DNA of 64,000 nt, taken from the NCBI RefSeq assembly GCF_003790525.1, contig NZ_CP033635.1, one strand, 5' to 3'. This DNA comes from Escherichia coli (GTDB taxonomy: Bacteria > Pseudomonadota > Gammaproteobacteria > Enterobacterales > Enterobacteriaceae). This document shows positions 7,093 through 26,787 of the stretch, piece after piece. The translations under genes and the position numbers were made by a program. Each line of letters starts with the position of its first letter. The first letter of the stretch is position 1. The notes beneath the pieces are model-generated. The model searched no databases. It saw only the letters and a program-made list of their open reading frames with translations, and had not been told where the DNA came from.

Positions 7093-7343
7093 TTTTTATT
7101 TCTCTTTCAGGTGAATAGATCGTTTTTACTATTTTACCCCGCACGAATCATCGTTAAAATCAGATTATAGTGTAGGAATAATTCGTTTTTTACGAACCAT
7201 TGAAGGATTTGTGCCATCAGCGATGAGATGATTTTTTGACGGCTGTAAGCGCTCACGAGTGACCCTAAGCCCTGATAATCATAGCTTAAGGTGAGGATTT
7301 CTGAGGGATTAATTAGGAAAAGTAATAATAAAATCGCACTGTG

Positions 7344-8588
7344 CTATAGCTGTTTATTCCAGAGATGCTTGAAAATATCTAATGTGGAGACAACATTGGC
7401 AGGCGACATTCGGTTTAATGAGGATAGAAAGGGATGAGACTCCAGGAAGTTGATAAAACGAGTCGCGCTTGCTAACGTCGAATACCGCATTTCATTTGCT
7501 TTCTTGTTTCCTGTAAGGTTACAAACAGCCATTGAATAATCACGGGCGGAAAATGTACGCCAAACATTATTTCTCACGCCACCACTCAAAAACAACCGCG
7601 GCGGCGTATCATAATGAGTCGTTTTCTCGCCGCGTTCTTTCACAAATGAAATATGGCACCGGCCTTGATGAATATGCTGTAAATTAGCCATCAGACAACC
7701 ACCTAATATAAAGCACTCGTGATCAAGGTAGTGTTGAATATTTATAGAATATGCTTCAGTCAGTGCTCTAACCAGTTCAAAATGGCGATACGCCGGAAGA
7801 ACCGGTTTCACCAACATCCCCGGATCGTTTTGATGTAATATCGCCCGACCATAATCAATATCAAATAAGGTATCACGCCGCATAGTAAGTAACTCCTTGC
7901 GTTGTACGTGATGCGCCAGTGTACCTGGAGACAAACGCTCTTCATAACTTGATGCATATTGATAATGCGACTCTACCGCTGATGGAGAATAATTTGTTGA
8001 AATAGCGACGACTCTACCGCTTTGTTCTTCTGCGGTAACAAGGCTATAAAGATAGTTATTACTACCGTTAAACTTTACGCGAAAAGCGCGGGTAGATAGA
8101 GAAATATCAGAAGCAGAAGAGTATTGGTAACTTTCTTTATAGTTTACTTCCCGGGCTAGTTTCATCAACTCACGGTTAAGCCCTGTGCTATTAAGAAGTA
8201 ATAATTTACGGATATCTGCAAGTGAAGCGCCTTGATCAATCATCAATGCTAAATGTGTTCTTCGCGGCGTTGTATTTACATGATCCAGAGTGATAAAAGT
8301 TCTGGAACAATGATGACAATACATTCTCCTCTGCCCCTGAGCTGAATAGCCATACTTTTTCAGAGATGTGCTTCCGCAAGCTGAACATTGTGGAACCAAC
8401 CCTCTCCATGAATGATTAACACGATTACGATAAATATTAAGAGATCGTTCAGATATCACAGGAAACAAGTAACCGCATTCCCGACATAAAATATTTTTTC
8501 CTTGTGCAATATAATCCTGGCTATTCAACAACCCCAGGTTTTTGCATCCTGGTGTTTTGCAACAATCAACATTTACGTTGGTAAACAT
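7344..8588 (-). CDS. Uncharacterised Cys-rich protein with two predicted CxxC...CxxC zinc-ribbon modules (InsA-like), ~414 aa
   Basis: ORF track starts at 8624, but the ATG at 8588 (MFTNVNV) has AGGGAG 6 nt upstream; motifs CKTPGC...CRECG and CSACGSTSLKKYGYSAQGQRRMYCHHCSRTF; C-terminal ~300 aa with no motif I recognise. Confidence 0.7.
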   Translation of the reverse strand: MFTNVNVDCCKTPGCKNLGLLNSQDYIAQGKNILCRECGYLFPVISERSLNIYRNRVNHSWRGLVPQCSACGSTSLKKYGYSAQGQRRMYCHHCSRTFITLDHVNTTPRRTHLALMIDQGASLADIRKLLLLNSTGLNRELMKLAREVNYKESYQYSSASDISLSTRAFRVKFNGSNNYLYSLVTAEEQSGRVVAISTNYSPSAVESHYQYASSYEERLSPGTLAHHVQRKELLTMRRDTLFDIDYGRAILHQNDPGMLVKPVLPAYRHFELVRALTEAYSINIQHYLDHECFILGGCLMANLQHIHQGRCHISFVKERGEKTTHYDTPPRLFLSGGVRNNVWRTFSARDYSMAVCNLTGNKKANEMRYSTLASATRFINFLESHPFLSSLNRMSPANVVSTLDIFKHLWNKQL

Positions 8589-8628
8589 ATTCACTCCCTG
8601 CGAATACCCGGATATTATCGTCATATGT

Positions 8629-8669
8629 CAAAGAAAAGAACCTGACTCAATGTGTAACATTGAATCAGG
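8629..8669 (-). terminator. Candidate intrinsic terminator/attenuator between the sulfatase gene and the Cys-rich gene
   Basis: 12-bp inverted repeat cctgactcaatg(tgtaa)cattgaatcagg; on the minus-strand RNA the stem is complete with one G-U pair and is followed by UUCUUUUCUUU. Confidence 0.45.
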
Positions 8670-8717
8670 CGGGCATGGCCCTGAAAGGCATACATTACAT
8701 TTATTATGGTTATCAGA

Positions 8718-10211
8718 TTAGCCCCAGGTTACCGCTTCCGGTTTATCACCTCTGGCTTTCATTAATGAATCATTATCAATATCGGCTTTATACTTTAAGA
8801 ACTTACCATACATTTGTTTTTCAATGTCTGGATTTTTACCTATCTGATTAATGGTCTCAAAACGATCGGTTTTGAGGTTGTATAGGTACTTTGGCTTATT
8901 GTTACGATCGATGATCATTTTCCAGTCACCATCACGTATCGCCCATTCGTCGGTTGGATCATCCTGGAATGGCATGTCAATTCCGAAGATTAATGGCTTT
9001 TCACGTTTTAGCGCTTTGTTCTCAAGGACAGGAACCAACGATTCGCCATCAAAAGTCCGGTCCGTCGGTAATTTGAAGTTCATCATTTTCGCCAGCGTAG
9101 GCATCCAGTCCAGACCATAAACAGGCGTATCTGAAACCATTCCCTTTGGAAGATGCTTTCCGTATTTAATAATCGCCGGAACACGGATGCCACCTTCCCA
9201 GAGATTATCCTTGCGACCACGTAATCCATCAGTTTCCCCTGCCAAATTCAGTTCATAAACTTTGCGCGCTTCACGCGTTACTGGTCCGTTATCACTGGTA
9301 AAAATAACGATGGTGTTATCTTCTTCACCCATCGCTTTGATTTTATCCAGTACTTTTCCAACCTGAGCATCCAGATAACTGATGTTGGCATAATATTCTC
9401 CTGTACCACGCCAGGGTTTATCCGCCCAGTCGCCATAAAATAAATCAGGATGCTGCTTCTGATAGTCGCTCATATATTGTGAGTACATGTCGAGGTATTT
9501 TTTGGGCGAAGCCAGGGGACTGTGCACTTCGGTAAAAGCGACATAAAGGAAGAAAGGCTTACTGTCCTTTTTGTTATCCAACCAGTTGACGACTTCCGAA
9601 CTGACATACTCACCACTCATTTTATCGGAACGTGGTGTGGGTTGCCCGTTACGCAACCAGCCCGTTGGATAGACCATGCCAAAACGGGGACGCTCCTTCG
9701 CATTATCCAGAGTAGCGTCGGTAACAAAACCCGCCGTATTAACCAGTGAGTAATCAAAGCCCATATCTTTTGCCTGCGGCTGATCGGTGCGATCGCCGCC
9801 TGCATTCAGATGCAGCTTACCCATCATGGCCGTGTCGTACCCTTGCGCTTTGAGTAGATTAGCAATCGTGAGTTCATTACGCCCTAATGCCACATCTTTT
9901 CCCGTTGGGATCCATGAGCGTATGCCGGTACGAAATGGCATCCGCCCTGTTAATAGTCCCGCCCGTGAAGGAGAACTTAAGGGGGCAGGTGCATAATAGT
10001 CGGTAAATTTGACGCCTTCCTGGGCAAGCCTGTCTATATTGGGCGTTTTAACGATCTGATGTCCATATGTTGCCAAATCACCATAGCCTAAATCATCCGC
10101 CATAATGATGACTAAATTGGGTTGTTTAGTTTCGGCGGCTACGGCTGGATTAAAAGCATTCCCTGTGCAAACTGCAAGGCCGATCAAACTGGCCATTAAT
10201 GTTTTCTGCAT
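8718..10211 (-). CDS. Secreted sulfatase (arylsulfatase family), Ser-type active-site motif SSPSR, ~497 aa
   Basis: Sulfatase signature PNLVIIMADDLGYGDL, active-site block PLSSPSRAGLLTGR (Ser at the formylglycine position), second signature GYDTAMMGKLH; N-terminal signal peptide MQKTLMASLIGLAVCTGNA; start chosen at ATG 10211 with AGGGA RBS (track ORF extends to 10247). Confidence 0.85.
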   Translation of the reverse strand: MQKTLMASLIGLAVCTGNAFNPAVAAETKQPNLVIIMADDLGYGDLATYGHQIVKTPNIDRLAQEGVKFTDYYAPAPLSSPSRAGLLTGRMPFRTGIRSWIPTGKDVALGRNELTIANLLKAQGYDTAMMGKLHLNAGGDRTDQPQAKDMGFDYSLVNTAGFVTDATLDNAKERPRFGMVYPTGWLRNGQPTPRSDKMSGEYVSSEVVNWLDNKKDSKPFFLYVAFTEVHSPLASPKKYLDMYSQYMSDYQKQHPDLFYGDWADKPWRGTGEYYANISYLDAQVGKVLDKIKAMGEEDNTIVIFTSDNGPVTREARKVYELNLAGETDGLRGRKDNLWEGGIRVPAIIKYGKHLPKGMVSDTPVYGLDWMPTLAKMMNFKLPTDRTFDGESLVPVLENKALKREKPLIFGIDMPFQDDPTDEWAIRDGDWKMIIDRNNKPKYLYNLKTDRFETINQIGKNPDIEKQMYGKFLKYKADIDNDSLMKARGDKPEAVTWG

Positions 10212-10230: not shown

Positions 10231-10992
10231 TTAGAAATCATAACCAAGCATATAAATCATTTGATCGCCAAAACCATCGTAGCCCAACTTATTATCGAAA
10301 TAACGCCACGTCACACTGGCTTTCCAGCGAGGATAGAACTTCCAGGCCACTGTTAAACCGCCATTTAGCCCATTCCGACCAAATTGTTGTTCCGCATAGG
10401 CATCATTTCTGTCCAGTTCTATTTCATTCCAGTTAGATAAAACAAATTTTTCGTCAAATAACGTAAAAGGTAATACTGCTGTCCAGCCAACAACATAACC
10501 ATTCCAGCCATTTGTTTGTCCATATTTGGCTGAGACGTAGTCTCCAGATTGATTATGTAATCCAATATACGGTTTAAAAAACCCCCATGAACCATTCCAG
10601 CCGAGGTAGCCCAAACCATAAAACATATCAAGATCGTCACCCCATGAGTTATCCCATTGACCATAGATCTTGCCAAAGAAAGTCATATTGGAGTCAAAGA
10701 GTCTGACATGTGTCATAGCAGAAACGGTATGATTACGCCCCGCTACGGCATGGTTAAGCACATTGCTTTCATAAAATGAGTAAAACTCGGCTTCTTTAAA
10801 ATTCACACCAAAGTCTGCAGTCACTTTCCATACTTCACCACGATGAGTGTTAACGAAGCCACTATTCCAGTCAGCATAACCTGCATTTATTGAGCCAAAG
10901 GAACCTTTATATTCTAATGAAGAATATGCAGGAAGGTGATAGAAAATCGTTGTCAGGGCACACGCAATAAGAAGCCGTCTTTTGGCAGACAT
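10231..10992 (-). CDS. Tsx/OmpK-like outer-membrane channel protein, 253 aa
   Basis: Signal peptide MSAKRRLLIACALTTIFYHLPAYS, Trp/Tyr/Gly-rich beta-barrel-like sequence, C-terminal Phe; WDNSWGDDLD block resembles Tsx; GGAGAG RBS; ends 19 bp upstream of the sulfatase start. Confidence 0.7.
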   Translation of the reverse strand: MSAKRRLLIACALTTIFYHLPAYSSLEYKGSFGSINAGYADWNSGFVNTHRGEVWKVTADFGVNFKEAEFYSFYESNVLNHAVAGRNHTVSAMTHVRLFDSNMTFFGKIYGQWDNSWGDDLDMFYGLGYLGWNGSWGFFKPYIGLHNQSGDYVSAKYGQTNGWNGYVVGWTAVLPFTLFDEKFVLSNWNEIELDRNDAYAEQQFGRNGLNGGLTVAWKFYPRWKASVTWRYFDNKLGYDGFGDQMIYMLGYDF

Positions 10993-26732: not shown

Positions 26733-26770
26733 AAAAAAAAAGCCCGCACTGTCAGGTGCGGGCTTTTTTC
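26733..26770 (-). terminator. thr operon attenuator terminator
   Basis: Minus strand: agcccgcacctgacagtgcgggct hairpin followed by 8 U, between thrL and thrA. Confidence 0.8.
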
Positions 26771-26787
26771 TGTGTTTCCTGTACGCG

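Follow-up and report, generated by a model that had tools for sequence, protein, structure and literature searches.

What does a stem-loop between the second and the third gene of a three-gene operon do? It may divide two transcription units, or it may set the dosage of the downstream product within one of them. The question is raised by an accessory island of Escherichia coli, which is located between mokC/hokC and nhaA and carries all three genes on the minus strand. The island is described here as it occurs in strain SMS-3-5, and coordinates refer to the window, the whole stretch of 64,000 nucleotides that was analyzed. The first gene (10231..10992) codes for an OmpK/Tsx-like outer-membrane channel, and its end is 19 nt from the start of the second gene (8718..10211), which codes for a sulfatase with an N-terminal signal peptide, as judged from the RefSeq annotation, the translation and a Pfam Sulfatase match (E = 3.9e-59). 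Its signature SSPSRAGLLTG assigns this sulfatase to the Ser-type. The third gene (7344..8588) encodes a protein of 414 amino acids that was at first described as Cys-rich, and its Shine-Dalgarno sequence GGGAG (8594..8598) is part of a longer ribosome-binding block, UAUUCGCAGGGAGUGAAUAUG. Since the sulfatase stop codon is at 8720-8718 and the third-gene ATG at 8588-8586, a gap of 129 bp separates the two genes. The original prediction for this gap was that it holds an intrinsic terminator or attenuator, which partly insulates the third gene from porin-sulfatase transcription, and that the third gene may have its own promoter there.

About one in four complete E. coli genomes (1281/5426) carries the island, which O157 Sakai lacks. 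It occurs in E. coli as two diverged alleles. The examined B2 strains (LF82 and E2348/69) carry an allele diverged from that of SMS-3-5, with about 88% identity over the intergenic stretch, and this B2-type allele is the commoner one among island-bearing E. coli. When SMS-3-5 is aligned with LF82 (L002; window 7238-8637), the island is most diverged in the third gene and the spacer following it, with 67-88% identity per 100 nt as against 80-97% in the channel and sulfatase genes. The spacer directly past the U tract is nearly unalignable between SMS-3-5 and the B2 allele. The Salmonella enterica island shares its chromosomal site with that of E. coli but differs in gene content: an arylsulfate sulfotransferase gene lies between the third gene and nhaA (L060:7376-9091), and the Tsx-like channel gene is oriented divergently. 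No literature on this locus was found under its Salmonella, EPEC and UPEC locus tags; a "putative cerebroside sulfatase" module beside nhaAR is only drawn in one paper (PMC4182557).

In the minus-strand RNA, the gap contains a terminator-like hairpin (8640..8670), recognized by folding, by a terminator scan and by covariation. Its helix consists of 14 pairs, two of them G-U, formed by 8670-8657 with 8653-8640 around the loop UAC (8656-8654). The inverted repeat had been described correctly in the original prediction: the arms 8641-8652 (cctgactcaatg) and 8658-8669 (cattgaatcagg) have a single asymmetric position, 8646 (c) versus 8664 (a), where the minus-strand RNA has a U-G wobble and the plus strand a C-A mismatch. 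The second wobble is found at the base of the helix. The folding check that had been proposed favors the same strand. The minus-strand RNA folds with -21.5 kcal/mol (z = -4.09), which is matched by none of 200 shuffles, and the plus-strand RNA is less stable (-17.1 kcal/mol, z = -2.85). The stem is long and A/U-rich, with only 5 G-C pairs out of 14. It is immediately followed by the U-rich tail UCUUUUCUUU (8630..8639), which together with U8640 reads UUCUUUUCUUU (8640-8630). Both this tail and the 129-bp gap are as originally described. The tail has 8 T within its 10-nt window and is interrupted by C at two positions. The hairpin with its tail lies 49 nt past the sulfatase stop codon.

A consensus terminator scan lists this site as terminator-like, and no other hairpin on either strand of the 64-kb window combines 12 or more contiguous pairs with 7 or more T in a tail of 10 nt. 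A covariance-model search of the window likewise gave one significant match, the element itself. Each of 1275 E. coli genomes has the element at a single place, and a dispersed palindrome of the REP, BIME or ERIC type was therefore rejected. An Rfam scan of 8300-9000 returned only chance-level matches (E-values 1.4 to 9.7). Another inverted repeat, GGTCTCAAAAC...GTTTTGAGGTT on the plus strand, is situated inside the 3′ part of the sulfatase coding sequence (8851-8881); it has 13 pairs when G-U pairs are counted and sits about 130 nt before the stop codon.

Comparative data are a much stronger argument for a strand-specific RNA stem-loop than the single sequence was. A search with the third protein gave 20 genome loci, and a DNA-pattern scan of metagenomes added 27 copies of the element. 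Among these, the hairpin and U tract directly follow the sulfatase stop codon in 30 distinct sequences from at least eight enterobacterial genera: Escherichia (four species), Salmonella, Citrobacter, Klebsiella, Kluyvera, Phytobacter, Kosakonia and one further enterobacterial genome. In the alignment of these 30 sequences, pairing in the core helix of 12 pairs amounts to 98.3%, with 7 of these pairs changed on both sides. The covariation score is 0.373 as against 0.197 in shuffles, none of 500 shuffles reaches the observed value, and pairing falls to 23-45% when the partner is slid by 1-3 columns as a control. On the sense strand, 52 cells of the alignment are G-U and 4 are A-C (27 and 4 when the basal pair is left out). 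This excess indicates that the structure has been selected as RNA of the operon strand, and not as a DNA palindrome. The tail, too, is conserved in a form like UUCUUUUAUUU, and its UUUU core is invariant in 30/30 distinct sequences. Together, the covarying pairs, the G-U excess and the UUUU core support the original reading of the element as an intrinsic terminator or attenuator.

The clue on which strand specificity was first argued has a different status. The G-U pair at 8664/8646 is a strain-level SNP: the exact 51-mer of SMS-3-5 is present in only 23 of 1275 island-bearing genomes, and the position is a perfect A-U pair in other non-B2 E. coli. A perfect palindrome of 13 bp is seen in most E. 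coli alleles. The B2 allele carries another wobble (A-U to G-U) and a compensatory change from U-A to C-G next to the loop, and in E. albertii the B2 wobble position has turned into G-C. In the more distant relatives Franconibacter, "E. pulveris" and C. amalonaticus (L023, L024, L025), stable hairpins that are not homologous to the element occupy the corresponding place between sulfatase and maturase genes, that of C. amalonaticus without any U tract. The sulfatase and maturase genes of Buttiauxella (L022) nearly abut and have no hairpin between them.

The genes past the hairpin tell how the downstream part was originally arranged. Comparison of the gap 8589-8717 with loci L009-L013, L017, L019-L025 and L060 revealed that in most genera the next gene past the hairpin encodes a radical-SAM/SPASM sulfatase maturase (anSME), and that in these anSME-bearing genera the third gene of E. 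coli, which encodes a zinc-ribbon protein, begins 24-33 nt past anSME. The distance from the end of the U tract to the anSME ATG is 11 nt in Salmonella enterica, where the Shine-Dalgarno sequence abuts the U tract, and it is similar in Citrobacter, Kosakonia and Phytobacter, with an overall range of 11-25 nt. Eleven nucleotides leave no room for a promoter, so that the maturase gene and the zinc-ribbon gene of these genera need read-through transcripts. The anSME gene is absent from Escherichia, K. oxytoca, K. spallanzanii, P. massiliensis and Kluyvera intermedia. The gaps without anSME are 129 to about 330 bp long, and this variation suggests that the gene was lost independently. Because of the loss in Escherichia, the ATG of the Cys-rich gene came to lie 41 nt past the U tract; in E. 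coli the block UAUUCGCAGGGAGUGAAUAUG lies about 20 nt past it, and comparison of alleles and loci shows that this block is kept with either anSME or the hairpin upstream. The same loss leaves a Ser-type sulfatase (SSPSR) without its cognate maturase.

How strong is the terminator? Its stem is stable and closed by a short loop, the U tract follows immediately, and pairing is kept on the sense strand, as in Rho-independent terminators. By a d'Aubenton-Carafa-type score, which was combined with modern energy parameters and is thus a rough guide and not a measure of efficiency, the element reaches about 4-6 in E. coli and from -6.9 to 22 over ten family variants, as compared with 30-52 in four of five other terminator-like hairpins of the window; the family member of UBA3516 falls below zero. 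This marginal score is in keeping with a tuned, leaky terminator inside an operon, and so are the richness of the stem in A/U and the C residues that interrupt the U tract in a conserved manner. An antitermination switch of the BglG/SacY type with a RAT sequence was rejected, since the folds showed no conserved alternative pairing with the terminator arm and the operon has no gene for a PRD or CAT-domain protein.

The element is probably a leaky Rho-independent terminator or attenuator that ends the sulfatase cistron, serves also as a protective 3′ hairpin and sets a step in dosage. Most transcripts of the ompK-like and sulfatase genes would then end in the U tract at about 8631-8637, and the hairpin would also shield the 3′ end of that mRNA. 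A minority of polymerases would read through and express whatever lies downstream: two genes in the ancestral operon of four, for anSME and for the transposase-derived zinc-ribbon protein, and the latter alone in Escherichia, where anSME has been lost. The element would act as a high-to-low step within one operon, and not as the divider of two transcription units. We infer from sequence comparison that polymerases do terminate here, that only a part of them do so, and that the third gene of E. coli depends on read-through.

A simple terminator does not explain everything that is conserved here. Directly upstream of the hairpin lies a 22-nt motif (8671..8692, minus strand), UAUGCCUUUCAGGGCCAUGCCC in SMS-3-5 and UAUGCCACUUAGGGCnnUGCCC as family consensus, which exceeds the stem in conservation, with a mean pairwise identity of 84% as against 69-72% in the stem arms, 58% in the linker and 30% downstream. 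The motif contains a mini-hairpin of its own, in which GGGC (8681-8678) pairs with GCCC (8674-8671) across the loop 8677-8675, and which abuts the terminator stem. Apart from K. oxytoca, all sequences have the same mini-hairpin stem; of the three loop positions, two vary freely. Upstream of the motif, an A/U-rich linker (8693..8717) extends to the sulfatase stop codon, and A-rich runs of the AAU/AAG type are found in its sequence in all genera. From 5′ to 3′, the module is thus made of an A-rich linker, a near-invariant UAUGCCACUUAGGGC, a GC mini-hairpin, the terminator and a U tail. The motif matches the window once, where 0.03 matches are expected by chance. The metagenome pattern matched 34 times; 27 of these matches are complete elements that follow a sulfatase gene, and seven are chance matches without a hairpin. 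In the window and the metagenome scan together, the motif was found solely in the context of a post-sulfatase hairpin. An apparent second copy after the third gene (7269-7283) was dismissed as a chance match, as it is not conserved in B2 or in other species.

The third protein is the other conserved companion of the sulfatase. Two 4-Cys zinc ribbons and a helix-turn-helix are predicted at its N-terminal side, followed by an RNase-H-like transposase/integrase fold; RefSeq labels it as containing the N-terminal zinc-binding domain of IS1/IS1595. An AlphaFold2 model built from a 42-sequence alignment has a pLDDT of 91 and a pTM of 0.91. No invariant D-D-E triad is present in this alignment, where only E291 is nearly invariant. 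By protein search the family is restricted to Enterobacteriaceae, and the gene is single-copy and syntenic across genera. The predicted fold and this distribution point to a protein that is probably a domesticated transposase and plausibly a DNA-binding regulator. Two distant relatives were seen in other surroundings, one with 28% identity beside another radical-SAM/SPASM gene, and one with 22% identity standing alone and divergent from a nucleoside transporter gene. The E. coli strain VTB96815v (L005:599-2911) has IS66 (tnpA, tnpB, tnpC) at the very start of the third gene, just past the conserved ribosome-binding site, and this insertion represents a natural knockout of the gene.

Against this background other readings of the element can be weighed. 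Taken in full, the original proposal would have an efficient terminator end the porin-sulfatase unit and a promoter in the gap drive the third gene. A perfect TTGACA at 8631-8626 (minus strand), overlapping the end of the U tract, and a GATAAT at 8619-8614 speak for such a promoter, yet their partners are poor: 17 nt past TTGACA stands GGTATT, which matches a -10 element in 3/6 positions and leaves no usable one, and the -35 hexamer belonging to GATAAT is GGTTCT (1/6). No sigma-70-like site was found on the minus strand of the gap in SMS-3-5 at 9 of 12 matching positions, nor at a relaxed 8 of 12. Neither hexamer is kept in the B2, E. whittamii or E. albertii alleles, and other Escherichia alleles have 8-of-12 sites only. 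Genera with larger gaps do have promoter-like sites, such as the 9-of-12 site placed 37 nt upstream of the ATG in the 232-nt gap of K. oxytoca, but the ancestral spacings, 24-33 nt past anSME and 11-25 nt past the U tract, indicate downstream genes built for read-through. Since a sigma-70-like pair is missing and the hexamers are not conserved, this reading is not supported and the full model is unlikely, while a weak, activator-dependent or non-sigma-70 promoter in the gap is possible. On the plus strand, a 9-of-12 promoter-like site (TTCACT, 17 nt, TATTAT; 8590-8618) points antisense into the hairpin. The first interpretation was half right: its reading as a terminator or attenuator is upheld, and its separate promoter is not supported. 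It is likewise improbable that the hairpin brings about no useful termination and serves as an intercistronic stabilizer or processing barrier, which stops 3′-to-5′ exonucleases after endonucleolytic cleavage further downstream, so that the porin-sulfatase segment outlives the distal one. The long A/U-rich stem and the C-interrupted U tract would allow a mainly stabilizing 3′ hairpin or processing site, as would the marginal terminator score and the hairpin of C. amalonaticus, which keeps the same position with no U tract, and the outcome for dosage would be the same as with a leaky terminator. A pure exonuclease barrier, however, has no need of a conserved U tract with a UUUU core kept in about 30 sequences.

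The motif raises a further alternative, doubtful at present, which would add to the role as terminator and not replace it. The module may be a new 3′UTR-derived sRNA of Enterobacteriaceae, released from the mRNA, or a platform for Hfq, ProQ or another factor, with the invariant UAUGCCACUUAG(GGC) acting as seed or recognition site; or it may be a factor-responsive attenuator, in which a protein recognizes the motif and so sets read-through into the genes for the maturase and the putative regulator, a part that the co-inherited zinc-ribbon protein of transposase origin might play. This alternative draws on the excess of motif conservation over the adjoining arms, on the near constancy of the motif while the stem sequence turns over by compensatory change, on its restriction to this one context, and on the A-rich, ARN-like run upstream and the U tail downstream. 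It is weakened by the lack of a matching Rfam family and by the searches for a partner. Duplexes of the motif with the initiation regions of the operon's own genes in 11 loci were no better than shuffles (z from -1.9 to +2.0), the complement of the motif occurs in the window as a single chance-level site with three mismatches, and no conserved complementary 8-mer exists in the 15 fetched loci, a match to the anSME codons CPK being limited to two of them. Conservation of the motif could, alternatively, reflect an RNase E site or an element for terminator efficiency. Finally, the feature could belong to the DNA, as a palindromic operator or as the relic of a transposon end to which the transposase-derived third protein binds. 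The perfect 13-bp palindrome of most E. coli alleles and the adjacent gene for a zinc-ribbon/HTH protein with a transposase fold would suit this idea, which is nevertheless very hard to sustain: pairing is conserved and the stem sequence is not, the G-U cells break DNA symmetry one way only, and a 1.2-kb anSME gene stands between the element and the third gene in most genera. The element is moreover single-copy, and the search for terminal inverted repeats around the third gene gave one chance-level 12-nt pair (7272-7283 with 8705-8716) and no inverted repeat matching the element beyond the third gene.

Taken as a leaky intra-operon terminator, the element can be compared with known systems. 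It resembles canonical Rho-independent terminators of enterobacteria, such as the thr leader terminator (window ~26734-26771), in its stem-loop followed by a U-rich tract, in its position after a stop codon, and in the pairing kept by compensatory change. It differs from them in its longer, A/U-rich stem, in its C-interrupted U tract without an A tract upstream, in its location inside an operon instead of at the end, and in its rough score of about 5 against 30-52 for four of the five other terminator-like hairpins in the window. Partial terminators and intercistronic stem-loops inside operons are known from rpsU-dnaG-rpoD, from the rplL-rpoB attenuator, from the REP hairpin of malE-malF and from the Rhodobacter puf operon. 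As in these cases, the hairpin stands before genes needed in smaller amounts, here those for the maturase and the putative regulator, and the next cistron probably begins too soon after it for a promoter of its own. Unlike the malE-malF REP, it is single-copy with no relation to REP or BIME, and it has a conserved sequence motif attached. Several sRNAs, namely CpxQ, SroC, DapZ, SdhX and NarS, derive from 3′UTRs and share the terminator of their parent mRNA. The module is like them in having a conserved, largely single-stranded segment upstream of a terminator, a U tail and an A/U-rich stretch that may contain an RNase E site; it is unlike them in having no Rfam match and no local target found. 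Sulfatase and anSME genes are also paired in Klebsiella atsBA and in E. coli ydeN-ydeM. The present operon follows these pairs in placing a Ser-type periplasmic sulfatase beside a radical-SAM/SPASM maturase in most genera, and departs from them in the order sulfatase-hairpin-anSME, in the extra transposase-derived gene and in the loss of anSME in Escherichia.

As gene-dosage control, the element is of an ordinary kind, and no general principle is changed by it. What deserves attention is the conserved 3′UTR motif, a Ser-type sulfatase that lacks a maturase, and an apparent domesticated transposase co-inherited with the sulfatase genes. If the reading as a leaky terminator is true, expression of the third gene in Escherichia would be tied to the operon promoter and not be independent. 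It would also explain how one accessory operon, which is found in Salmonella, Citrobacter and Klebsiella too, can yield much porin and sulfatase together with little maturase and putative regulator.
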